Positions 7,172-49,059 of a stretch of 64,000 nt of DNA are shown here, piece by piece. Within the stretch, counting starts at the first letter, position 1. Each line of letters begins with the position of its first letter. The stretch comes from Anaerolineales bacterium (GTDB lineage Bacteria > Chloroflexota > Anaerolineae > Anaerolineales > UBA11579): assembly GCA_040902205.1 (NCBI GenBank), contig JBBDXR010000034.1:2859-66858 (forward strand), in the 5' to 3' direction. The translations under genes and the position numbers were made by a program. The notes below the pieces were generated by a model, which searched no databases, had not been told where the DNA came from, and saw only the letters and a program-made list of their open reading frames with translations.

Positions 7172-9052
7172 TTAGTCGTCTTGCCCCTTGACTTGTTTAG
7201 GAGGCATGTTTGCGGTGCCGGGCCCGTACTGATAAATATCCGGCCAGGCTTGGTATTGGGTTGCGAAGATATCCTCGTAAAGCAACACGCCGTCACGATA
7301 GACGCGACGGAACCAAGTCACGTCGGCGCCCTTCACAGCCCAGTCCACTTGCTTCACTTCTCCCTTGCTTAATTCCGGGTTCTCTTCATAGCGCGTATCC
7401 GGCGGATCGGTGATGTTATCGATGCCGCTGCTCTGCGCTTCAACGGTGCGGCCATCACTGGTGGAATAGAATTTCCACGTGATGGATCCCGATTCGACGT
7501 AGGTTTCCATCAGCAGCCAGTAGGGCGTGTCGTTCTGGAATTTAAAATCGACAATGGGCGCGAACACGGTGGCATCCAGGCCTACCAAGCCGGGGTCGAT
7601 CTGGTTGGCCGAGTTGCGCTCGTAATATCCCACGCGGTAGGCGTGCGGCCAGCGTTCGACGATGGGGAAGCCGGCAAAGAACGCGGCGCGGAACAAGGTG
7701 GTACTCACCTGGCAAACGCCGCCGCCGACGCCCTTGATGGTGCGATCGCCGAAGATGATCAGCGCTTCGGCGAAGCCGGATTCCAAGCTGATGTCTCCGA
7801 TGTTGTCCACCATCGAGAACACCGCCCCAGGGGGAACCAGCAGGCCATGGAAACGTTCTGCGGCGGTGGTGATGTTTTGGATGCGCGCCGGGGCCGAACC
7901 GTAGAAGTAGGTGGATTCCTGATGAACTAACTGGGTAATGCCCAGCTCGGCGGCGGTCACGTTATCGCCGACCTCTGGGTCCGAATAGTCGTACTGTAGT
8001 TCCACTTGATGGGTGCCCTCGCCGATCTGCTCATTGATGTGGTCGATGCTGGCCTGCAAATCAAGCGTGCGGCCGACAATTGCCGGCTTGTAAATATCGA
8101 GTTGCGCGGTTTCATCGTTGAAGATGAACCGCGCATTGCGCGGCGTTGCAGCGACCTGCGGGCCTAGATCCGCAACAAAAGCGCCCAGCTGTTGCGCGTC
8201 GAGACCGATCTGGTAATGGGCGCGAGTCTCGCCCTCCACGCGCTCCACGCTTAGCATGCCCGCCAGCGTCTCAGGAGAAAGGGTCCACGGTTCGGGATTG
8301 TCTTCGTAAGAGCCGCCAGGAAGAATTGCAAGGGGCTGGGTCAGCAGATTCTGGGCGATGGCGGCTTGGGCGCTGGCATCCAGGATACGCGGCGGGGCTT
8401 CAATGACTGCAAGGGGAACTTCGATGTCCTGCATCAGCAGGAGTTGGGCGGCCAACCAGTCAGCGGTCTTTTGGGTATCCAGCGTGAGCCCGATCTGCCC
8501 GGGCTGCACGGCGATCTGTAAGCCGGACACGGAGAGTTGTGCTTCGATGGTCGGTCGGTTCAGTTCGGCGGCAATGCGCTGCAATGCGCGGTAAGCCGCC
8601 TGGCCATCGAAAACCAGTCGCGGAGCAAGCTCCGCACCACCCTGTAGCGATTGGGCCTTGCCGGCGATGTTCTCCCAGGGCCAAAGGCTGCGGCCGAAGC
8701 CATAGGCAGCGCCGGCGCTGGCTTCCGCATCTAAGCGCAAGCCCAGTTCCGCGGGCGTGAAGGTCCAGACGCGCTCGCCGTAGCGCAAGGTGACGTGGCC
8801 GGTGGTGGGGAAACTAAATTGCCGGGCTAGGAGGGCGACCGCTTCCGTTCGGCGCATGCCGCCGAGGTCCAGCCCGGCCATGCGCACGCCGGGCAAGATG
8901 CGGCCAAGGTAAGCCAGGCTGAAGATTGTGGAGAAGACGAGCGCGGCCAACGCGGCTAAACCAACGGCCGCGGCCAGCATCACTCCCGACTTGGCGAGGA
9001 TACTTGGCTTGGCTAGCTCGAGGGGCGGCTGGGCCATTGGCTGGGTCACCAT
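7172..9052 (-). CDS. VanW-family protein with N-terminal membrane anchor
   Basis: 626 aa with an N-terminal TM segment and the VanW core GGGVCQVSTTLFRAAFFAGFPIVERWPHAYRVGYY. Confidence 0.85.
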   Translation of the reverse strand: MVTQPMAQPPLELAKPSILAKSGVMLAAAVGLAALAALVFSTIFSLAYLGRILPGVRMAGLDLGGMRRTEAVALLARQFSFPTTGHVTLRYGERVWTFTPAELGLRLDAEASAGAAYGFGRSLWPWENIAGKAQSLQGGAELAPRLVFDGQAAYRALQRIAAELNRPTIEAQLSVSGLQIAVQPGQIGLTLDTQKTADWLAAQLLLMQDIEVPLAVIEAPPRILDASAQAAIAQNLLTQPLAILPGGSYEDNPEPWTLSPETLAGMLSVERVEGETRAHYQIGLDAQQLGAFVADLGPQVAATPRNARFIFNDETAQLDIYKPAIVGRTLDLQASIDHINEQIGEGTHQVELQYDYSDPEVGDNVTAAELGITQLVHQESTYFYGSAPARIQNITTAAERFHGLLVPPGAVFSMVDNIGDISLESGFAEALIIFGDRTIKGVGGGVCQVSTTLFRAAFFAGFPIVERWPHAYRVGYYERNSANQIDPGLVGLDATVFAPIVDFKFQNDTPYWLLMETYVESGSITWKFYSTSDGRTVEAQSSGIDNITDPPDTRYEENPELSKGEVKQVDWAVKGADVTWFRRVYRDGVLLYEDIFATQYQAWPDIYQYGPGTANMPPKQVKGQDD

Positions 9053-41638: not shown

Positions 41639-43153
41639 ATGCGATTATACATCCTGCTCTTCTTCGTACTCTTGCTGCTCTCGGCTTGTGCCCCAGCCGT
41701 CGCACCTGCCGAGGCCATCTCCGTCACCATCAGCTTCGATGGCGATTCCCGCTCACTGACCCTGCCAGCTGGCAGCCGCGTGCGCGATGCCATCGCCTCA
41801 GCTGCCATTGAACTCGGCGACCTGGACCGCAGCGAGCCGCCATCCTACACGGAACTGACCGATGGCGATGAGGTCCGCGTCATCCGCGTCACAGAAGAAT
41901 TCGAGACCGAACAATCCACCCTGCCTTTCATTTCGCGCACCCTGCCCAATGAGTCGCTGCCCGTCGGCGAGCAGCGCCTGGTACAGAACGGCGCTAACGG
42001 CCTGCGTGAAGTCCATTATCGTCTGCTCTTCGAAGATGGCGAACTCGTCTCCCGCACCGAGGTCGACTCGGCCGTCCTCACCCAGCCGGTCGAGGAGATC
42101 ATCATGATCGGCGCGCAATCGACCTTCAGCTCCGTGGAGCTCAGCGGCCGCTTGGCCTTCCTCTCCGCCGGCAATGCCTGGGTGCTCGAGCGAAGCAGCG
42201 GAAGCCGCCGCGCCGTGGCCATCACCGGCGATCTCGACGGTCGTATCTTCGAGGTCTCGCCGAACGGCGAGTGGTTGTTGTTTTCGCGCACCAGTTCTTC
42301 GGATGGCGACATCAACGAGTTGTGGGTCGCCCGCCTCGATGAAGGCGACCAGTTCCTCATTGATCTGAATGTCAGCAATGTGGTCCATTATGCAGGCTGG
42401 GTTCCCGGAGACGAATACCAGGTGGCCTTCTCCACCGTCGAGCCCTCGCCCAACCCTCCGGGTTGGCAAGCCAACAACGATCTGCAGTCCCTCACCTTTA
42501 CCGACGCGGGGCAGGTAGCTGAGCTCGAGATTCTGCTTAGCCCGCGCGAAGACGGCTTCTACGCCTGGTGGGGCACCAGCTACGCCTCGTCGCCTTCCGG
42601 CGAGCAACTCGCTTTCTCGCGCCCGGATGGGGTGGGGACCGTGAATCTTGATTCCGATTCCCTCGACGTGTGGTTCACGCTGCCCGCCTTCCAAACCGGC
42701 AGCGATTGGGCCTGGATCCCCGGCCTTTCCTGGCTTGACGATGACAGCTTTTATTACGTCCGCTACGCGCTCAACCCGCCCAGCTTCGCGTTGGTGCTCA
42801 CCGGCCCCGGTGGCAGCACGCAGATCGCCGCCGACGTCGGCATGTTCGCTTATCCGGCCGCGGAACAGGATGGCGGCCAGGTTGCCTTCCTGCGCGCCTT
42901 CATTCCCGCGCAAAGCGATATCAGCACCTATGAGCTGATGGTGGCCACTTCCGAAGGCGTCACCGCCTCCTTGTTCCCACCCGAAGGCGCCGCGGGTCTC
43001 CAGCCGCACCAGGTGGCCTGGTCGCCCTCTGCCGAAAGCGGACCCATGATCGCCTTCGTGTACGAGGGCAATCTTTGGGTCGTCAACGTCCTCACCGGCC
43101 AGGCGCAGCAGCTCACTGGCGATGGCTTGGTCAGCCGCCTCTCGTGGCGCTAG
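41639..43153 (+). CDS. lipoprotein with G5-like domain and TolB-like beta-propeller region
   Basis: Lipobox LLLSAC, then a region resembling a G5 domain (VGEQRLVQNGANGLREVHY), then WD40-like propeller repeats. Confidence 0.75.
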   Translation: MRLYILLFFVLLLLSACAPAVAPAEAISVTISFDGDSRSLTLPAGSRVRDAIASAAIELGDLDRSEPPSYTELTDGDEVRVIRVTEEFETEQSTLPFISRTLPNESLPVGEQRLVQNGANGLREVHYRLLFEDGELVSRTEVDSAVLTQPVEEIIMIGAQSTFSSVELSGRLAFLSAGNAWVLERSSGSRRAVAITGDLDGRIFEVSPNGEWLLFSRTSSSDGDINELWVARLDEGDQFLIDLNVSNVVHYAGWVPGDEYQVAFSTVEPSPNPPGWQANNDLQSLTFTDAGQVAELEILLSPREDGFYAWWGTSYASSPSGEQLAFSRPDGVGTVNLDSDSLDVWFTLPAFQTGSDWAWIPGLSWLDDDSFYYVRYALNPPSFALVLTGPGGSTQIAADVGMFAYPAAEQDGGQVAFLRAFIPAQSDISTYELMVATSEGVTASLFPPEGAAGLQPHQVAWSPSAESGPMIAFVYEGNLWVVNVLTGQAQQLTGDGLVSRLSWR

Positions 43154-43204
43154 ATTGTTGCGCATGCTAAAATCCCGCGCCATCACCATGCCATCCCCTT
43201 CTTT

Positions 43205-43288
43205 GTCATTCCGAGCGAGGGCGTCTTGCGCCGCCTTTAGCGGCGCAGCCCAGAGCCTGCCCTTGAGCGAAGCGAAGGGAGGAATCCC
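43205..43288. repeat. solo repeat R1 (GTCATTCCGAGC... family) with internal hairpin
   Basis: GTCATTCCGAGCGAGG, the hairpin GCGCCGC-CTTTA-GCGGCGC (43228-43246), then TGAGCGAAGCGAAGGGAGGAATCCC. Related to R2 at 48426-48510. Confidence 0.7.
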
Positions 43289-43345
43289 TTTGGGTTTTCT
43301 TCAAAACGTGCATACACTAGAGAGTAGGGCGGTTTCAAGTTGACC

Positions 43346-43492
43346 ATGCGCATCCTCGTAACCGGCGCCGCCGGCTTCCTCGGCTCCCATCTCTGCGACC
43401 GCCTCCTGGCCGAAGGCCACGAAGCCTGTCCTGAGCGAAGCGAAGGATCGTCGGCATGGACAGCCGGAAGGCCGCACTGGAGCGCGCGATGA
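43346..43492 (+). pseudogene. relic 5' end of uxs (31 codons) split by a 23-nt repeat insertion; reads as a 48-codon upstream ORF
   Basis: [26 protein letters not shown] | 23-nt insert at 43425-43447 | VVGMD. After the insert, the shifted frame ends in a TGA overlapping the uxs ATG (ATGA at 43489-43492). Confidence 0.8.
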
Positions 43493-44448
43493 GAGTGCTC
43501 GTAACTGGGGCCGCGGGATTTTTAGGTTCCCATCTGTGCGACCGCCTCTTGGCCGAAGGCCATGAGGTCGTCGGCATGGACAACTTCATCACCGGCAAGC
43601 CGGAGAACATCGCCCACCTGGCCGGCAACGAGCGTTTCCGCTTCATCCGCCATGATGTGTCAAATTACATCCACGTCCCCGGCAAACTGGACGCGGTGAT
43701 GCATTTTGCCTCGCCGGCCAGCCCCAACCCGGCGTCGCCCATCGGCTATCCCAATCTGCCCATCCAGACCATGAAGGCCGGCGCGCTTGGCACGCACAAC
43801 AGCCTCGGCGTGGCCTTTGCCAACAAGGCGCGCTTCATGCTCGCCTCTACCTCGGAGATCTACGGCGATCCCCTCGAGCATCCGCAGAAAGAGACCTACT
43901 GGGGCCACGTGGACCCCATTGGCGAGCGCTCCGTCTACGATGAAGCCAAGCGCTTCGCCGAAGCGCTCACCATGGCCTACCATCGCTTCCACGGCGTCAA
44001 CACCTGCATCGTGCGCATCTTCAACACCTACGGCCCCCGCATGCATATCGACGATGGCCGCGCCGTGGCCAACTTCATCCAGCAGGCTTTGCGCGGCGAG
44101 AAACTCACCGTCTACGGCGACGGCCAGCAGACGCGCAGCTTCTGCTACGTGGATGACGAGATCGAAGGCATCTACCGCCTGCTAGTCTCCGACGTGCACG
44201 AACCCGTGAACATCGGCAATCCCACCGAGATCACCATCGAGCAGTTCGCCAAAGAGATCGACTCCCTTGTCGGCAAGAAGGCTGGCCTGGTATACGACAA
44301 GGATCGCATGCTCTCCGGCGACCCGCTGCGCCGCCAGCCGGATATCACGCGGGCGAGCAAGCACCTCGGCTGGGAACCCAAGATCTCGTTGCAAGAAGGG
44401 CTTAAGAAGACCATCCCTTATTTCAAACAGCAGTTGGGGATTGCCTAA
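43489..44448 (+). CDS. uxs: UDP-glucuronate decarboxylase (UDP-xylose synthase)
   Basis: 319 aa, [20 protein letters not shown]... with the YDEAKR catalytic motif, an SDR extended-family member. Confidence 0.9.
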
Positions 44449-44449
44449 T

Positions 44450-44893
44450 CCGTCATTGCGAGGAGCCGTGTTGCCGTAGGCAACTAAGGCGACGTGGCAA
44501 TCTGATAGCCCCTTGACCTGGTACCGTGGTCAAAGAAATAGAGGCCTGCGTCTACATCCTGACCAACTGGAAACATACAGTCCTGTATACTGGAGTAACG
44601 AGTGACTTGGCTCGAAGGATGGAAGAACATTGAAGTAAAACTGGAAGCGCATTCGCAAAGCACTACAATCTAAACACGTTGGTTTTGTGGAGGTTACTGA
44701 GAGATTCGAGGATGCAATTGCCCGTGAGAAACAGATCAAATCTTGGGCGAGGTGGAGAAAGAACGAATTGATAAGTAGCGTCAATCCTGACTGGAAAGAC
44801 CTGTACGATGAATATTTTGATTAAGCGAGTTGCATTTTCCTTCGTAGGTTCAGATTGCCACGTCGCTCCCTTGCTGTGGCAATCTCCGAGACC
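44450..44893. mobile_element. decayed copy (E1) of the GIY-YIG/inverted-repeat unit
   Basis: The left end CCGTCATTGCGAGGAG plus hairpin GTTGCC-GTA-GGCAAC matches the E2 end. There is a perfect 17-bp inverted repeat, GCGACGTGGCAATCTGA (44489-44505) and its complement (44850-44866). The outer right repeat is degenerate. Confidence 0.6.
44526..44824 (+). pseudogene. GIY-YIG nuclease pseudogene
   Basis: Homologous to the 47469-47777 product (ACVYILTNWKHTVLYTGVT...EKQIKSW...NPDWKDLYDEYF). It has an in-frame TGA at 44631 and a 1-nt deletion in the T-run at 44683-44686. Confidence 0.8.
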
Positions 44894-44905
44894 ATTTGCT
44901 GAGTT

Positions 44906-45361
44906 ATGAGCCTAATTAATAGTCGCAAAGAGCAAAAAAGGTTCGTGAAATTCGCCATCGTCGGCGCCATCGGCACCCTCGTCGACTACAGCGTCTTCAA
45001 TCTCGTCGCCTTCCTCTTCGGCGTCGAGGAGCTCTACGCCCAGGGCATCAGCTTCCTGGCCGCCGTCGCCTCCAATTTCATCCTCAACCGCAACTGGACC
45101 TTCCGCGACTCGCGCACCAAGCACGTGCGCGTGCAGCTCGCCCAGTACGTGCTGGTCAACGCCATCGGCCTCCTCATCCGCACCCCCATCTTTGCCTTCC
45201 TTGGCGGCCTGTTTGGCAATATGCTGGCCGGCTTCCAGGTGCCCTTCGGGCTGACTGCACACTGGCTGGCCCACAACCTGGCCCTTGCGGGGGCTATTGG
45301 GGTCGTTTTACTTTGGAACTACTTCGTTAACAGGCGCTGGACATTCGGCGACGTCAAGTAG
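44906..45361 (+). CDS. GtrA-family membrane protein
   Basis: 151 aa with KFAIVGAIGTLVDYSVFN and C-terminal LLWNYFVNRRWTF. Confidence 0.85.
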   Translation: MSLINSRKEQKRFVKFAIVGAIGTLVDYSVFNLVAFLFGVEELYAQGISFLAAVASNFILNRNWTFRDSRTKHVRVQLAQYVLVNAIGLLIRTPIFAFLGGLFGNMLAGFQVPFGLTAHWLAHNLALAGAIGVVLLWNYFVNRRWTFGDVK

Positions 45362-45378
45362 CAGGCTGGAGAAGTGTT

Positions 45379-45402
45379 GCCCGGCGAAGCCGGGCTGTTT
45401 CT
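45379..45402 (+). terminator. terminator-like hairpin after gtrA
   Basis: GCCCGGC-GAA-GCCGGGC followed by TGTTTCT. Confidence 0.55.
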
Positions 45403-45431
45403 CCCGCGTTGCGTAGCAACGCACGGCACCC

Positions 45432-45497
45432 ATCGGCGTGGTGCTGCTATGGAACTACTTCGTCAATCGTAGGTGGACGTTCGGGGATGTGGAGTAG
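45432..45497 (+). pseudogene. relic 3' end of a diverged gtrA allele (21 codons plus stop)
   Basis: Encodes IGVVLLWNYFVNRRWTFGDVE*, against IGVVLLWNYFVNRRWTFGDVK* at the end of the functional gene 70 nt upstream. Confidence 0.8.
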
Positions 45498-45636
45498 TTC
45501 GAGTTAACTGACTAGCAACTGCTTTGTTGCGTCAGACGCTTTTGTGTCCATAACCAAGCCGCGCAGCAATAATAGCCCTCCCAAGTCCCTGTGGACCAAC
45601 CTCAATCCCAGTGTGGGTGAGCCCCTTCCTGCGACC

Positions 45637-45663
45637 TTGACAAGAATCCTCCAACGATATAAT
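45637..45663 (+). promoter_or_regulatory. candidate promoter TTGACA ... TATAAT upstream of the membrane-protein/wHTH pair
   Basis: TTGACA at 45637-45642 and TATAAT at 45658-45663 (15-nt spacer), or TAATAT with a 17-nt spacer. Confidence 0.5.
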
Positions 45664-45715
45664 ATGTAAATAGGTTTGCGATACAAAGTAGTCTGTACTG
45701 TCAAGTGGAGGATGT

Positions 45716-46333
45716 ATGCAAGGCCCAAAGGAAATCCGGTTTTTGACCCTAAGGTACTCTCGCAGCCAGGGATTAAAAGGGTTCCCCTTGGGGCTCCTAT
45801 TGCTAGCCGTCGTTCTCTGGGTAAATTTCACCTCAGGTGCTACCCGTAATCTGATTCTCCCAATCTCTTTCGGAGTAGGGGCGGCCATCCTGTATTGGCT
45901 GGTTGGTGACTATTATCGTAGGCGATATGGAAGGGTCGAGGTGACCGTCGAACAAAGGCGCGTGGACTTTTTGTATGCTGCCTTGGCTGGTATCACTGGT
46001 TTGGGTGCCTTTCTCATGGATGTCAGCTATGAACTCCCGGTCAACATGGTCGGCTTGGTGTTCGCGGCTGGCTGCATTTTCGAATACACGCGCCTTTACC
46101 GGCTGGGGAAGAGTTCCTATTTCGTGTGGCAAACGATCATAAGTTTTATTCTAATCTTGGCTGTCAGCCTCCTTCCGGTCCTTGGCGCCGGAGGTGTCTG
46201 GCTGCAGCTCGGCTTGCGCTCGCACCTCCTGTTGGTCTTGCTGGTCACCAGCGTTATCCTGCTGCTAGGGAGTTTGGGAGAGCATCTCAATTTCGTTCGC
46301 CAATTCCCGGCAGGGGAGATCGGACATGGCTAG
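45716..46333 (+). CDS. hypothetical polytopic membrane protein
   Basis: 205 aa with about 5-6 hydrophobic helices. GGAGGA lies upstream of the ATG. Confidence 0.65.
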   Translation: MQGPKEIRFLTLRYSRSQGLKGFPLGLLLLAVVLWVNFTSGATRNLILPISFGVGAAILYWLVGDYYRRRYGRVEVTVEQRRVDFLYAALAGITGLGAFLMDVSYELPVNMVGLVFAAGCIFEYTRLYRLGKSSYFVWQTIISFILILAVSLLPVLGAGGVWLQLGLRSHLLLVLLVTSVILLLGSLGEHLNFVRQFPAGEIGHG

Positions 46334-46652
46334 CGTCTTCGAAGAGATGGCCGGCCTGGACCGCTTGATCCACGAACCCGCCCGCTTGGCTATTCTCACG
46401 GCTTTGTCCGCCTGCAAAAAAGCCGACTTCACCTTCATGCAGCGCCTCACCGGGCTTACGGTGGGCAATCTCTCCGTCCATCTGTCCAAGCTGGAAGAGG
46501 CTGGCTTGCTGCGCACCGAAAAACAGTTCGTTGCCAAACGCTCAAATACCGTCGCCGAACTCACAAAAAAGGGGCGCGCTGCAATTGATAATCATTGGCG
46601 GCAACTCGAAACCTTACGTAAGGACTCTAGGAATTGGAAGGTCGGTCAATGA
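46326..46652 (+). CDS. winged-helix (ArsR/MarR-like) transcriptional regulator
   Basis: 108 aa with LIHEPARLAILTAL...LTVGNLSVHLSKLEEAGLL. Overlaps the upstream gene by 8 nt. Confidence 0.8.
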   Translation: MASVFEEMAGLDRLIHEPARLAILTALSACKKADFTFMQRLTGLTVGNLSVHLSKLEEAGLLRTEKQFVAKRSNTVAELTKKGRAAIDNHWRQLETLRKDSRNWKVGQ

Positions 46653-46779
46653 ATTGGCGTGCGCCTTCCGCTCCTTGACATCAGCCTGAATTCCCGCCAC
46701 AAATCCCCAAATCGTGCGATTAATAGGCCCATGAAAGGAAGGGGGGGCCCTGCTTGCCTGCTGCCTGCCGCTTGCCGGC

Positions 46780-46833
46780 CTTGTCAAGTTGTAATGGTGC
46801 CGTGTGGCGCTCGTTACATTACCACTTGACAAG
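46780..46833. promoter_or_regulatory. long inverted repeat carrying two CTTGWCAAG palindromes
   Basis: The arms CTTGTCAAGTTGTAATG and CATTACCACTTGACAAG pair at 16 of 17 positions, about 20 nt apart, upstream of the thioesterase gene. Confidence 0.4.
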
Positions 46834-46889
46834 CAGATGGCCTTGAATACGCGATCAAATCGGCCATGCTTTTTGCTTATAATCCTCCC

Positions 46890-47390
46890 ATGCCCGCCCC
46901 CAAGCTCGCCCCGCAGCCCGTTTCCGCCTCCCGGGTCACCATTTCCCAGCTCATGGAGCCGGCCCACGCCAACGTGCAAGGCAACGTCCACGGCGGCCAC
47001 ATCATGAAGCTGGTGGACGAAGCCGGCGCACTGGCCTGCATGAAGCACTCCCGCCAGCGCGTCGTCACCGTGGTCATCGACCGCATGACCTTCACCCATC
47101 CCATCAAGATCGGCGACCTGGTCACCATCACTGCCGAAGTCAGCTACGTCGGCTCCACCTCCATGGAGGCCGAAGTCTCTGTAAAGGCCGAGAACCCCAC
47201 CTCCGGCCAGGCCTGGGACACCAACACCGCCTACCTGGTCTACGTAGCCCTGGATGAGCTTGGCAAGCCCGTCCGCGTGCCGCCCCTGCTGGCCGAAAGC
47301 GATTTCGAGCGCCAGCGCATGGAGCAGGGCGCTGCCCGCCAGCAATACCGCCTCAGCCAGAAGCAATTGGCTTCGGCCACGAAACGATGA
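46890..47390 (+). CDS. acyl-CoA thioesterase (hotdog fold, YciA-like)
   Basis: NVQGNVHGGHIMKLVDEAG and ...TSMEAEVSV. Start taken at the second ATG (46890), though 46866 is also possible. Confidence 0.85.
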   Translation: MPAPKLAPQPVSASRVTISQLMEPAHANVQGNVHGGHIMKLVDEAGALACMKHSRQRVVTVVIDRMTFTHPIKIGDLVTITAEVSYVGSTSMEAEVSVKAENPTSGQAWDTNTAYLVYVALDELGKPVRVPPLLAESDFERQRMEQGAARQQYRLSQKQLASATKR

Positions 47391-47397
47391 TCTTCCA

Positions 47398-47851
47398 CCG
47401 TCATTGCGAGGAAGGCCGAATGTAAATGAGGCCGACGAAGCAATCCGTGCGCTGCTTAAAGGGCTAAGATGCGGAGAGACCAAGACGCCTGTGTGTACAT
47501 CCTTACGAACTGGAAACATACCGCTTTCTATACTGGTGTAACCAATGACCTGCAGCGACGAATAGAACAGCACAAAACCAAGGGAGGAGGTCAATTCACA
47601 AGAAAGTACAACCTTACTAAACTTGTATTTGTGGAAGTTACAGAGCGAATCGAAGATGCCATTGCTGGGGAAAAACAGATAAAGGGAGGTTCGCGTCAAG
47701 ACAAAATCGACCTAATAAATAAAATGAACCCCGAATGGAATGATCTCTACGATGAGTACTTCGCAATCAGTGAATGACTTGTCTGCTCGAATAGAATGGA
47801 CTAGATTGCTTCGTCGGCGTTGCCTTGGCAACGCACTCCTCGCAATGACGG
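47398..47851. mobile_element. compact GIY-YIG unit (E2) bounded by nested perfect inverted repeats
   Basis: Outer inverted repeat: CCGTCATTGCGAGGA (47398-47412) and TCCTCGCAATGACGG (47837-47851). Inner inverted repeat: GCCGACGAAGCAATC (47431-47445) and GATTGCTTCGTCGGC (47804-47818). Hairpin: GCGTTGCC-TT-GGCAACGC (47817-47834). Confidence 0.65.
47469..47777 (+). CDS. GIY-YIG nuclease family protein (small, stand-alone)
   Basis: 102 aa with VYILTN...FYTGVTNDLQRRIEQH...AIAGEKQIKG, the GIY-YIG core. Lower GC than the flanking genes. Confidence 0.85.
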   Translation: MRRDQDACVYILTNWKHTAFYTGVTNDLQRRIEQHKTKGGGQFTRKYNLTKLVFVEVTERIEDAIAGEKQIKGGSRQDKIDLINKMNPEWNDLYDEYFAISE

Positions 47852-47858
47852 TGCGGCC

Positions 47859-48422
47859 TTGAAGCCCCTTCGCGTCGTCGCCGGCTTCGCTCGCGGCCTG
47901 CATCTGCGCTCCGTCCCCGGCGATAAAACCCGCCCCATCACCGACCGCGCCAAAGAATCATTGTTCAACATCTTGCGCCCGTTTTTACAGGGCGCCGCTT
48001 TCCTGGATCTCTTCGCCGGCACTGGCGCCGTCGGCATCGAAGCCCTAAGCCAGGGGGCTGCCTTCGTTCGCTTCATCGATAACCAGCGCGTCGCCGTGGA
48101 GACCATCAGCGCCAACCTGGCGGTCACCAAGTTAGGGGAGGGAGCTCACGTTCTGCAAACCGACGCCTTTGCGCACCTGGCGGGCAAACCCGACCGCACC
48201 TTCGATTACGTCTTCATCGCTCCACCGCAATACCACGGCCTTTGGAAGCAGGCGCTCCTGGCGCTGGATGCAAATCCGGGCTGGCTGGTAGCGGACGCCT
48301 GGGTCATCGTCCAGCTCGACCCCAGCGAATACGAACAACTCGTCCTCGCCAACCTCGACGAATTCGACCAGCGGAAATATGGCAAGGTGTTGCTTGTCTT
48401 CTTTGAAAGGAGAGCTTCTTAA
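47859..48422 (+). CDS. rsmD: 16S rRNA (guanine966-N2)-methyltransferase RsmD
   Basis: LRVVAGFARGLHL...RPITDRAKESLFNIL...FLDLFAGTGAVGIEALSQGA. There is no ATG, so I propose TTG at 47859. The ORF upstream of that is translated repeat sequence. Confidence 0.85.
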   Translation: MKPLRVVAGFARGLHLRSVPGDKTRPITDRAKESLFNILRPFLQGAAFLDLFAGTGAVGIEALSQGAAFVRFIDNQRVAVETISANLAVTKLGEGAHVLQTDAFAHLAGKPDRTFDYVFIAPPQYHGLWKQALLALDANPGWLVADAWVIVQLDPSEYEQLVLANLDEFDQRKYGKVLLVFFERRAS

Positions 48423-48425
48423 TTT

Positions 48426-48510
48426 GTCATTCCGAGCAGGCGCCGTCCTGAGCGAAGGCGAAGGAGCGCCTAGCGCTGCCTTTAGCGGCGCTGCCCGACG
48501 AGGAATTCAC
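48426..48510. repeat. solo repeat R2 (GTCATTCCGAGC... family) with internal hairpins
   Basis: GTCATTCCGAGCAGG, the core GTCCTGAGCGAAGGCGAAGGA, the hairpin AGCGCTGC-CTTTA-GCGGCGCT, then CGACGAGGAATTCAC. Starts 4 nt after the rsmD stop. Confidence 0.7.
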
Positions 48511-48558
48511 ACAGCTTAACTAATAAATGGCGTTCACTGTAAAAGGGGGTTTCGATGA

Positions 48559-49059
48559 TTAGCTATCAAATTCCATTACCAATTTGCCCGCCTCATCGTA
48601 CGAATACTTTCCCCACAAGGGCGCATCCCCTCGTTTCATCGTCAGCACCTTGGGTAGCAGGGAGGGGATATCTTCCACCATCGGCAATTCTGCCATCCTG
48701 CTCACCGGCACCCAGGCGATCTCTCCTTCAGATGAAGAGGTTGGCTCGCCAACTGCTTCACCACGGAAGACCCACATCGCAATTCCCGTTTCCGCGTCCC
48801 CCGTATCAATCGCCACCGTTGCGCATAGCCACAATCCCTCGGCAGTCAGGCCGCTTTCCTCTTCGACTTCGCGCCGCGCCGCGCCCAACACGCTCTCGCC
48901 GCGCTCCACGTGGCCGCCCATCCCGTTGTACAGGTTCGGGAACACTTTTCGATCAGCGCCGCGCTTGATCAGCAACACTTCATCCCCGCGGGTCAGGAAC
49001 ACCAACACGCGGGGAATGAACTGGTAGCGCGCCTTATCAGGAGCTTGAGGGGATGACAT
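48559..49059 (-). CDS. NUDIX hydrolase
   Basis: NUDIX box GGHVERGESVLGAARREVEEESGL. Start taken at ATG 49059; the ORF extends to a TTG at 49095. Confidence 0.85.
   Translation of the reverse strand: MSSPQAPDKARYQFIPRVLVFLTRGDEVLLIKRGADRKVFPNLYNGMGGHVERGESVLGAARREVEEESGLTAEGLWLCATVAIDTGDAETGIAMWVFRGEAVGEPTSSSEGEIAWVPVSRMAELPMVEDIPSLLPKVLTMKRGDAPLWGKYSYDEAGKLVMEFDS

Follow-up and report, generated by a model that had tools for sequence, protein, structure and literature searches.

The gtrA gene at positions 44906-45361 of the window (the whole stretch of 64,000 nucleotides of the Anaerolineales contig JBBDXR010000034.1 that was analysed; all features below lie on its forward strand) is a hybrid of a native body and an imported end comprising the last ~30 codons. 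The displaced native end is found at 45432-45497 as a relic that is now untranslated, behind an imported terminator, and the sequence between the two ends is a dispersed, terminator-like repeat of 58 nt. The same arrangement of tail, repeat and relic recurs identically in a second gene, lipA of the metagenome contig L052. The best explanation, to which we give about an even chance of being right, is that a foreign patch of ~160 nt was joined by homologous recombination on one side and illegitimately on the other, displacing the native gtrA end.

Results

Two copies of the gtrA 3' end

The functional gene is an open reading frame for 151 amino acids that matches the Pfam family GtrA_DPMS_TM (E = 1.2e-25). 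Its imported coding part is placed at 45266-45361 from codon differences from the relative L002 and from codon-usage likelihood, with a left boundary that is approximate (45230-45284), and only 45296-45361 of this part is duplicated by the relic. The relic comprises the native last 21 codons and TAG, collinear with the relatives L002 and L003, and encodes 20 of the last 21 GtrA residues and the stop 136 nt past the functional copy. An initial annotation, made from the letters alone, had described such a relic with 18 of 66 bases changed and a single altered residue, and this was borne out. The two copies are identical at 48 of 66 bases, and the differences fall on third (14) and first (4) codon positions, 17 of the 18 being synonymous and the remaining one lying at the K151E site. 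The functional tail reads IGVVLLWNYFVNRRWTFGDVK before its stop, the relic ends with GDVE in a different frame, and the similarity between the two begins sharply at an isoleucine codon. The relic frame has a stop six codons upstream and lacks a start codon. The relic peptide is not a chance match, as the next-best match to the 21-residue peptide in a six-frame translation of the 64-kb window reaches 8 of 21 residues.

At the nucleotide level the tails are no more alike than their common peptide forces. They share 43 of 60 bases, where two random encodings at host codon usage are expected to share 49.7 +/- 2.3 (P = 0.0025 for so few). According to the initial annotation, a nucleotide similarity without significance under codon constraints would speak against a relic; such a result was formally obtained, but the relic stands because it is a peptide-level match in non-coding DNA and is orthologous to the functional gene end of a relative. 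The initial annotation had also argued from the GC content of third codon positions (GC3). The values for the two 22-codon copies (21 codons and the stop), 0.73 versus 0.82, do not differ significantly on their own, and the native tail of L002, which carries no insertion, shows an equal drop against its own gene body; the argument is weak as it was put, and GC3 was dropped as a diagnostic.

Comparison with relatives

L002 is a syntenic relative, an Anaerolineales MAG, and the GtrA proteins of L002 and L003 are 87% identical to that of the window. Both have an uninterrupted gtrA; its last 66 nt, together with the sequence downstream of it, can be aligned with the relic and the sequence that follows the relic, and the window carries 136 bases more than either of them at the gtrA end. 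Since the uninterrupted gene end and flank of L002 match the relic, the relic is the native end. It differs from the L002 tail at 8 of 66 bases and exhibits no pseudogene decay, and because seven of these eight differences are synonymous it was under selection until recently. The displacement of the gtrA end is thus a recent event.

The functional end, on the other hand, is foreign, because it is far more diverged from L002 than the body and because its codon usage is atypical for the genome. Synonymous differences from L002 were found in 32 of 109 codons of the body (29%), 6 of 18 of the relic (33%) and 13 of 18 of the functional tail (72%; tail against body, Fisher P = 0.0009), and 7 of the last ten codons of the body differ from L002, compared with 29% elsewhere. 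In a codon-usage likelihood test against the host, the functional tail was atypical (P = 0.003) and the relic typical (P = 0.13). The likelihood falls from about 45230 on, with P = 0.0004 for 45284-45355, and over the gtrA body codon usage is typical of the host and the divergence is ordinary. In these comparisons the polarity proposed in the initial annotation, with the downstream copy ancestral and the translated end imported, holds, as does its general idea that incoming DNA brought a replacement end; its suggestion to ask which of the two ends the gtrA genes of relatives resemble gave the relic for both L002 and L003.

Two gtrA tails occur only in the window among the window and 48 loci, 45 of which are distinct related gtrA loci. 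No donor allele was found among the sampled orthologues, all of which are about equally distant from the functional tail (16-17 of 66 bases), and an exact look-up of the hypothetical pre-insertion GtrA (K151E) showed it to be absent from the protein collection. The last 21 residues of GtrA are nearly invariant across dozens of orthologues. Directly after gtrA, other lineages have 4HBT, and the window and L002 have an inserted ORF and an HTH gene.

Three other histories of this region were considered. That the relic was brought by the downstream ORF45716-HTH island, with the functional tail being native, was rejected because the relic has a lower identity to L002 than the island and the same level of divergence as the gtrA body: identity to L002 is only 85-88% over the relic and the 180 nt that follow it, compared with about 97% over the island. 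A single ancestral cassette that replaced uxs to gtrA, left both the uxs relic described below and the gtrA relic, and was later lost in L002 was likewise rejected, since the relic has undergone no neutral decay and the L002 tail is relic-like throughout and not a chimera. A single donor tract of 1.9 kb (43505-45424) is unsupported in view of the host-typical codons and ordinary divergence of the gtrA body.

A double-hairpin repeat between the two ends

The 70-nt spacer consists of a 58-nt repeat (45366-45423) and a few junction bases, and holds no ORF or integrase. The repeat was delimited from homologous copies with the same boundaries, a covariance model (R1), its fold and a terminator scan. 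In the outer stem 45368-45373 pair with 45399-45404, and in the inner stem 45379-45385 pair with 45389-45395; the latter hairpin (45379-45395), followed by TGTTTCT, is the terminator-like structure that the initial annotation had seen in the spacer, and the terminator scan detected it. The second hairpin, GCGTTGC-GTA-GCAACGC at 45406-45422, is formed by 45406-45412 and 45416-45422. The fold energy is -34 kcal/mol, and one compensatory pair was observed.

Full copies were found in the window and in contigs L013/L054, L051 and L052, scoring 79-93 bits with R1, and their flanks are unrelated outside CCTGGAGA on the left and GCAACGCA(A) on the right. On the right, the similarity of all copies is lost at one boundary, and in the window this coincides exactly with the junction. 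This right junction (45424-45431, CGGCACCC), where conservation among the copies stops at GCAACGCA(A), is probably illegitimate and may hold decayed native G-A codons and one extra base. L002 reads GCCGGCGCC followed by ATCGGC at this point and the window reads GCAACGCA, CGGCACCC and ATC in succession, with a possible microhomology of at most 1-4 nt to the native GCCGGCGCC, whose extent is not precisely fixable.

The repeat is rare: a scan of the metagenome contig collection yielded four full copies, the 64-kb window contains one, and no genome rich in it was found. In the distant relative L013 it lies 12 nt after the gtrA stop, with no detectable relic; in L051, which is from the same metagenome as L052, it is intergenic; and L002 carries a degenerate copy at 8952-9019. 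Each of the three copies that adjoin a gene is preceded by a gene end with atypical codon usage, an observation that fits a co-travelling unit as well as repeated patches from low-GC donors. A relic is present at two of the four full copies, and both junctions lie 0-2 nt from the right boundary of the repeat. Since the 58-nt unit has the same boundaries in four unrelated contexts, the spacer is not taken as the deletion remnant of a larger island.

Searches for known relatives of the repeat were negative. Its six-frame peptides had no matches in a protein-database search, nothing was found by a pattern scan of viral contigs or by blastn against plasmids and phages, and Rfam gave no credible match in 42500-49000 at E <= 1. 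Likewise, tblastn with approximate consensus queries for Y1/RAYT/IS200/IS605 TnpA, a weak test, gave no match in the window or in the loci, which represent partial genomes. The tails do not fit a diversity-generating retroelement, as the differences affect all bases and are synonymous and no reverse transcriptase is present among the annotated neighbours.

Recurrence in lipA

On the metagenome contig L052, the repeat is located between a codon-atypical lipA end and a native lipA relic. The protein ends in AVHRALYGTS, and the GC3 of this gene end is 0.47, compared with 0.9 in the body; its nucleotide identity to the closest relative is ~62%, compared with ~90% for the body. After lipA come the repeat and then a relic with the peptide VHRKLYGETRPI and a stop, and the closest LipA, P0121 (93% identical), ends with VHRKLYGETSPI. 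A similar C-terminus (AVHRKLYGTV) occurs in the LipA relative P0128, which was nevertheless rejected as donor of the lipA tail, the repeat being absent at its locus.

Neighbouring GIY-YIG elements and the uxs relic

Genes of the GIY-YIG type are found 82 nt upstream of gtrA and 2 kb downstream of it. The upstream one belongs to E1 (44450-44893, delimited by inverted repeats), a small element between uxs and gtrA whose nuclease gene (44532-44824) carries an in-frame stop as well as a frameshift, making it a pseudogene. E1 is context and a possible accomplice, outside the insertion itself; it is absent from L002, and an element occupies the same spacer in L013 and L047. The downstream element, E2 (47396-47853), is intact, with an ORF at 47469-47777 (PF01541). 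The right subterminal hairpin of E2 (47817-47834) resembles hairpin 2 of the repeat and is exactly one other match in the window to the pattern of 45406-45422, where 0.01 is expected. The hairpin that the initial annotation regarded as shared with the right end of E2 is thus real, but the likeness is confined to hairpin 2, and the covariance model of the whole repeat misses E2. The E elements have variable apical hairpins of their own. The idea that the spacer is the missing right end of E1 was rejected because L013 has a complete E right end directly before gtrA, of which E1 has a degenerate version at 44850-44893.

A 5' relic of uxs at 43346-43462 consists of 77 nt, a 25-nt mini-hairpin insert and a further 15 nt, and is common to L002 and L003. 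The initial annotation had noted that the gtrA relic mirrors this one, but the two do not stem from the same event. As L002 has the uxs relic but lacks the gtrA insertion, the uxs relic reflects a separate, older event of a mirror-image kind.

Discussion

The patch that we propose (~45266-45423, ~160 nt) would have carried the terminal ~30 codons of a gtrA allele that had diverged, specifying the same protein as the native end in other codons, the TAG and the 58-nt repeat, and would have come from a donor with the repeat just behind its gtrA stop codon. On the left side, homologous recombination within gtrA would have produced a seamless reading frame; divergence and codon usage shift gradually at about 45230-45284, and the frame is seamless there. 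On the right side, donor and recipient would have had no common homology, because an accessory island of two genes follows gtrA in this lineage, so that joining would have been illegitimate, 0-2 nt past the foot of hairpin 2 in the patch and 66-75 nt ahead of the stop codon in the resident gene. The gene would now end, and probably terminate, inside the imported piece, leaving the old end as an undecayed and untranslated scar. We infer that the process resembled homology-facilitated illegitimate recombination (HFIR) or was a break repair that copied a foreign template, and that the stable hairpin may have fixed the junction, either by protecting the non-homologous end from trimming or by serving as a target for a nuclease. 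Passive joining needs this extra assumption of a hairpin block because both relic junctions lie at the repeat boundary and two of the four copies have a relic.

The gtrA case is a variant of a known phenomenon, gene-end displacement, and is itself new. In Rhs/CDI polymorphic toxins, incoming DNA homologous to the gene core displaces the C-terminal tip, which becomes a downstream orphan. The old tip is displaced downstream here as well, but the toxins acquire a new toxin tip and an immunity gene, and thereby a functional innovation, whereas GtrA has retained the same amino acids (20 of 21). REP/BIME and MITE-like repeats are short GC-rich hairpin units that are dispersed, terminator-like and found after stop codons. 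The 58-nt unit is similarly GC-rich, hairpin-forming and terminator-like and occurs just after stop codons at unrelated loci, but unlike these repeats it is very rare and no partner transposase was seen. We know of no description of REPs that links them to replaced gene ends, a link that the 58-nt repeat does have. HFIR of incoming DNA (PMC3240628) is known from experiments with a few competent species but is not known from Chloroflexota, and was invoked for the displacement of T6SS effectors in Vibrio, where leftover fragments of the displaced gene stay downstream (PMC5361080). As in HFIR, homologous sequence surrounds one gtrA junction, the other is probably illegitimate and has at most slight microhomology, and the insert is short; in contrast, HFIR junctions are not expected to lie at a specific repeat boundary in independent events.

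A tentative alternative is that the recoded end and the double hairpin form an active gene-end cassette, a small non-autonomous mobile unit spread by homing-like break repair. A nuclease acting in trans, for which the local small GIY-YIG elements are obvious candidates, would cut the conserved native tail or the hairpin, the recoded tail would render the invaded allele immune and leave the gene intact, and the native tail would remain where the right side is not resolvable by homology. Two of the four full repeat copies are flanked by a foreign tail on one side and a native relic on the other, in two genes and two genomes and with junctions at the repeat boundary, and a codon-atypical tail precedes each of the three gene-adjacent copies; against this, the sample is four repeat copies only, the combined unit of tail, repeat and relic occurs in no more than one lineage per gene, and L013 has no detectable relic. 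That the gtrA copies differ beyond chance given their peptide is expected of an immune, recombination-proof allele, and the target, the nearly invariant last 21 residues of GtrA, is of the kind that homing nucleases typically use. Both gtrA loci with a full repeat (the window and L013) have a GIY-YIG element in the uxs-gtrA spacer, a third lineage with a spacer element (L047/L009) has CCTGGAGAAGCC directly after the gtrA stop, hairpin 2 resembles the subterminal hairpins of E1 as well as E2, and in L047 one E element has displaced another and left a 5' relic. However, the stretch between the duplicated ends is devoid of nuclease genes, that of E1 is a pseudogene, the contigs L052 and L051, which are short, carry no GIY-YIG gene, and small bacterial GIY-YIG proteins of the E type are not known to have homing activity. 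We regard as doubtful the specific proposal of a minimal mobile gene-end cassette that has no nuclease of its own, enters new genomes at the conserved 3' ends of gtrA and lipA as housekeeping genes, is mobilised in trans by the hairpin-ended small GIY-YIG elements found at these loci, supplies a cleavage- and recombination-proof synonymous end with a terminator, and leaves the native end as a relic.

The same architecture, a further point in favour of the cassette, is known from the endonuclease mORFs of fungal mitochondria, where C-termini were replaced in atp6 of Allomyces macrogynus and in atp6, atp9, cox2 and nad3 of Glomus sp. (PMC3630166). Nucleotide identity between the duplicates is ~63% in these cases, most of the differences being synonymous, and a horizontal origin was inferred, albeit with donors that are hard to identify (PMC3630166). 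In gtrA, as there, a foreign in-frame C-terminus has replaced the native one, which persists downstream, untranslated, and clusters with close relatives; an imported end that is foreign and a relic that groups with close relatives, the homing-type pattern, are found for lipA of L052 as well. In contrast, the mitochondrial cases have an endonuclease ORF (LAGLIDADG or GIY-YIG) between the ends, where gtrA has the 58-nt double hairpin, and the present case concerns a bacterial chromosome and nuclear-type housekeeping genes, with the nearest GIY-YIG gene a pseudogene on the other side of gtrA.

Integrative elements that target 3' ends and bring a replacement end include phage 21 and e14 in icd and islands in tRNA and tmRNA genes. 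That such a prophage or island was attached at the gtrA 3' end and its interior later deleted is very unlikely. The order of functional end, foreign DNA and relic is that of attL and attR at the protein-gene sites of phage 21 and e14 in icd; as with these elements, the functional end comes from incoming DNA, the native end is displaced and the differences are synonymous, and the tails share an identical run of 14 nt (TGGAACTACTTCGT), the longest between them. But such elements are kilobases long with an integrase and an identical core, whereas here only 70 nt separate the copies, an integrase, any other gene and a clear core are all lacking, and one 58-nt unit serves two different genes. The foreign tract also begins ~30 nt upstream of the duplicated part, which is at odds with a crossover in the 14-nt core. 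The integrating element that the initial annotation had envisaged between the copies was thus not recovered, with no integrase and an identical core of 14 nt at most. Because the discrete repeat recurs with the same two boundaries in four contexts, including lipA with its own relic, two independent deletions to the identical 58 nt would be needed, and no match was found in phage, plasmid or viral collections; this reading is close to refuted.

An assembly artefact, in which the metagenome assembler joined the gtrA ends of two co-occurring strains in tandem, is extremely unlikely. The source is a MAG, the related L002/L003 lineage occurs in what are apparently sister samples, with the adjacent run numbers SRR27977658 and SRR27977660, and the independent Logan assembly has no bridge over 45380-45421. 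However, the Logan contigs of SRR27977660 reproduce 44008-45379 and 45422-47024 at 100% identity, and their only breaks fall within the two hairpins, in precisely the kind of palindromic sequence on which de Bruijn graphs fail. Contig L001 runs from uxs through the functional tail and 18 nt of the spacer, and the Logan contig L055, after a poly-C artefact, starts with ACGGCACCC and continues into the relic, not with the gtrA body that an intact second allele would give. The relic moreover differs from the co-occurring lineage at 8 of 66 bases, and its flank by 12-15%, and L052, from an unrelated project, has the same architecture.

A local tandem duplication of the gene end that diverged in place, such as a long target-site duplication by a hairpin element, accounts for the direct orientation of the copies, their distance of 136 nt and the small element that separates them, but is given almost no weight and is refuted by the comparisons with L002 and with random encodings: a divergence of 27% that is almost wholly synonymous could not accumulate in place with the untranslated copy remaining intact, the relic, unlike the functional tail, is as diverged from L002 as the body is, the copies resemble each other less than two random encodings of their peptide would, and 10 of the 18 substitutions are transversions without a simple mutational signature.

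The one-sided patch would represent a clean and very short horizontal transfer (~160 nt) whose recipient was an essential-type gene in an uncultured lineage of Chloroflexota, one that is datable and whose scar reveals both the direction and the mechanism of transfer. Such relics mark recombination hot spots, and they caution annotators that the last codons of a gene may differ in history from the remainder. The presence of the same rare repeat, in the same order of tail, repeat and relic, at a second gene in another genome points to a possible new mobile entity and suggests that small terminator-like repeats can carry gene ends or set the site at which foreign DNA is stitched in. If the link to GIY-YIG elements holds, it would give a testable role to a very widespread bacterial protein family of unknown function, and the arrangement would be a bacterial chromosomal counterpart of the endonuclease-mORF gene hybrids of mitochondria.

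Duplicated end of gtrA

The functional gtrA (44906-45361, 151 aa) is an open reading frame with a Pfam match to GtrA_DPMS_TM (E=1.2e-25), and its last 66 nt (45296-45361, the functional tail) encode IGVVLLWNYFVNRRWTFGDVK. A second copy of this end (45432-45497, the relic) encodes IGVVLLWNYFVNRRWTFGDVE, but is untranslated, its frame being closed six codons upstream and without a start. The two copies are identical at 48 of 66 bases, with an abrupt start of the similarity at an Ile codon; the 18 differences fall at third (14) or first (4) codon positions and alter the last residue alone. Elsewhere in the window, matches to the tail peptide reached at most 8 of 21 residues. The intervening 70-nt spacer holds a terminator-like hairpin (45379-45395) followed by TGTTTCT, and a second hairpin, GCGTTGC-GTA-GCAACGC (45406-45422, hairpin 2), whose sole other pattern match in the window (47817-47834; expected 0.01) is the right end of a GIY-YIG element. 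The initial annotation had described this gene-end duplication and its spacer hairpins accurately, as judged by alignment and hairpin pattern search.

The organism is a metagenome-assembled genome (MAG) of Anaerolineales (Chloroflexota), and the nearest available relative is L002 (GCA_040882365.1) with the equivalent L003, showing 87% GtrA identity and the same gene order as the window (ScpB, G5-domain protein, uxs, gtrA, 205-aa ORF, HTH gene, 4HBT, RsmD). In L002 gtrA is uninterrupted, and the alignment of its final 66 nt with the relic continues through the whole downstream flank, leaving 136 extra bases in the window. Synonymous codon differences from L002 amount to 32/109 (29%) in the gtrA body and 6/18 (33%) in the relic, versus 13/18 (72%) in the functional tail (Fisher P=0.0009 for tail versus body), and 7 of the final 10 body codons already differ. 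Judged by host codon usage, the relic is ordinary (P=0.13) but the functional tail atypical (P=0.003; stretch 45284-45355, P=0.0004), and the likelihood profile drops from ~45230 on. The uninterrupted L002 gene, the divergence and the codon usage together show that the relic is the native continuation of gtrA. The polarity proposed initially, with the downstream copy ancestral and the translated end imported, was thus right, and the foreign tract extends from ~45266 to where the spacer ends.

Seven of the eight differences between the relic and L002 are synonymous, and the relic was therefore under selection until recently; the event is young. In a comparison with 48 fetched loci, of which 45 represent distinct related gtrA loci of species-representative genomes, the window alone had a second gtrA tail.

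A double-hairpin repeat behind gene ends

The spacer is not island debris, as a homologous double hairpin occurs at other loci. In L013, a distant Anaerolineales MAG (GtrA identity 68%), it lies 12 nt past the gtrA stop (CCTGGAGAA..TTACCCGGCGCAGCCGGGTAG..CTCCAACGCGTTGCGAAGCAACGCAA) and shows a compensatory G:C to A:T change in one stem pair. A pattern scan of metagenome contigs located the repeat in L051 (intergenic), L052 (after lipA) and L054 (sequence same as L013). The four distinct copies align over ~60 nt, and on either side their similarity ends at a common boundary; on the right, this boundary coincides with the junction of the insertion in the window (45423/45424). The window copy (45366-45423) folds into the two hairpins, the fold having an energy of -34 kcal/mol (z=-2.1). 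A covariance model scored 79-93 bits on its own building copies and elsewhere gave weak partial matches only, including a degenerate copy in L002 (8952-9019) with its right end abutting the rsmD ATG; nothing similar was found in Rfam or in plasmid, phage and viral collections. At the corresponding place in the window (47390-47860) the element E2 stands instead of the L002 rhodanese gene and the degenerate copy, and rsmD has an apparent TTG start instead of ATG. In L009 (409-500), CCTGGAGAAGCC ... TAGTTTCTCC directly past the gtrA stop matches the outer stem of the repeat with a different interior, and went undetected by the covariance model.

The lipoyl synthase gene of L052, a second and independent case, ends with ...QVRTLSAVHRALYGTS. 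On the minus strand (1640-1760), an AT-rich, atypical lipA tail (…AVHRALYGTS) is followed by the double hairpin and a native-tail relic. The tail has a GC3 of 0.47 versus ~0.9 in the body, atypical codon usage, and ~62% nucleotide identity to the closest relative versus ~90% for the body. The repeat begins 5 nt past the stop, and directly at its right boundary stands GTGCACCGCAAACTATACGGGGAGACGCGGCCCATCTAG, encoding VHRKLYGETRPI*. Anaerolineales LipA C-termini read ...VVHRKLYGE followed by a variable extension, and the relic peptide matches the C-terminus of the closest LipA (P0121, 93% identical; VHRKLYGETSPI). The architecture is thus the same as in gtrA: foreign tail, stop, repeat and native relic. 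The L013 gtrA tail (last ~95 nt) is likewise atypical (GC3 0.33-0.5 versus 0.9 in the body), with no detectable relic at that gene. Therefore, in each of the three cases where this rare repeat stands next to a gene, the gene end before it is codon-atypical, and in two of these cases a relic follows the repeat.

GIY-YIG elements and a neighboring island

Flanking the region are two small GIY-YIG (PF01541) elements whose ends are nested inverted repeats rich in hairpins (CCGTCATTGCGAGGAG ... CTCCTCGCAATGACGG). In E1 (44450-44893, between uxs and gtrA) the nuclease gene is a pseudogene, disrupted by a frameshift and an in-frame stop; E2 (47396-47853, before rsmD) is intact. Their subterminal hairpins (E2, GCGTTGCC-TT-GGCAACGC-AC; E1, GTGTTGCC-GTAG-GCAAC) resemble hairpin 2, albeit undetected by the whole-repeat covariance model. 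E1 is absent from L002, but L013 and L047 have related elements in their uxs-gtrA spacer, which makes this spacer an insertion hot spot. The L009 MAG also has GIY-YIG elements adjoining uxs (L047). In L047 (3891-4180) the sequence directly before a complete element is the 5'-end relic of an older copy, made up of its left end and initial 15 codons (MERDIEPCVYILTN) and differing synonymously from the complete element. Here one element displaced another, again on one side only. Next to E1, the first ~12 gtrA codons show unusual divergence from L002, with 10 of 30 nt mismatched. MITE-like hairpin repeats (GTCATTCCGAGCGAGG...GGAGGAATC around GCGCCGCCTTTAGCGGCGC) are found at 43208-43290 and 48442-48510 (43221-43251 versus 48466-48496, 87% identical), with a related copy in the L002 uxs-gtrA spacer.

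The 5' relic of uxs (43346-43462), in which the initial annotation saw a mirror of the gtrA relic, is of the mirror-image type but does not stem from the same event: it is common to the window and L002/L003, and therefore older and separate. A 25-nt mini-hairpin, AGCCTGTCCTGAGCGAAGCGAAGGA, which is also present at 43254-43280, interrupts the relic region (43346-43488; L002 4761-4903). The relic and its spacer are 92-97% identical to L002, above the functional genes (~87%), which suggests either that the region is constrained, perhaps as a promoter or leader, or that it was exchanged recently. The functional uxs head in L002 is a mosaic of relic type and imported type.

Downstream of gtrA, a pair formed by ORF45716 (205 aa, no Pfam match) and an HTH_34 regulator (45612-46630) shares ~97% identity with L002, compared with 70-87% for neighboring genes. 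The two genes form an accessory island that lineages have exchanged recently. It is missing from other lineages, where 4HBT directly follows gtrA; a donor with this usual order would thus have no homology to the right of gtrA.

Origin of the displaced end

An explanation must account for a left junction that is seamless and in homologous sequence, a right junction without homology at the foot of hairpin 2, a foreign imported tail, a recent event, and recurrence with the same repeat in another gene. The reading we prefer, and give about an even chance, is one-sided homologous recombination of incoming DNA. Such DNA would have come from a related lineage with the repeat just behind gtrA, recombined homologously on one side, and been joined illegitimately at its non-homologous end. 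This matches homology-facilitated illegitimate recombination (PMC3240628), or else end joining after repair synthesis on a foreign template. The stable GC-rich hairpin would set the stopping point of trimming or synthesis.

The main rival, possible but clearly less probable, is that tail and repeat form an actively spreading cassette mobilised in trans by a nuclease. Several findings speak for it: the junctions coincide with the repeat boundary, the recoding exceeds chance, the target peptide is extremely conserved, and GIY-YIG elements occur at the same loci. Against it, the sample is four repeat copies and no nuclease activity is known. An analogue exists in the endonuclease-mORF hybrids of fungal mitochondria, where a foreign C-terminus and the native relic flank an endonuclease gene, and inserted and native ends are ~63% identical with mostly synonymous differences (PMC3630166).

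The integrating gene-end element of the initial annotation has to be replaced by a dispersed 58-nt double hairpin, and a remnant of an integrase-type island is unlikely. An assembly artefact is also unlikely. Logan contigs, an independent assembly of run SRR27977660, match the window at 100% over 44008-45379 and 45422-47024, and both junction sides are therefore independently reproduced. One contig (L055, 1-20) opens with a poly-C artefact, followed by ACGGCACCC (window 45422 on) and the relic. Adjacency across 45380-45421 has the MAG assembly as its sole basis; the Logan contigs end and start inside the palindromes, and these breaks show how such hairpins fragment short-read assemblies.

Finally, two random encodings of the shared peptide under host codon usage are expected to share 49.7 +/- 2.3 of 60 bases, and the tail and relic share 43 (P=0.0025 for so few). 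Thus the nucleotide similarity, by which the relic was initially to be judged, is nothing beyond protein constraint, yet the relic is real. The copies are unusually different, which excludes a local duplication diverged in place. Such dissimilarity is consistent with a foreign allele. Other possible sources are selection for a differing allele, or that inserts persist only when they are too unlike the resident sequence to be recombined out.

Consequences

In the GtrA protein, K replaces E at the variable last residue only. The gene gained an intrinsic-terminator-like hairpin that L002 lacks, and the downstream ORF has a promoter-like site of its own (45637-45665). The event appears to carry little or no selective effect. 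The phenomenon belongs to a known class, gene-end displacement by foreign DNA, of which the bacterial, hairpin-associated and recurrent form is new and merits a systematic survey.
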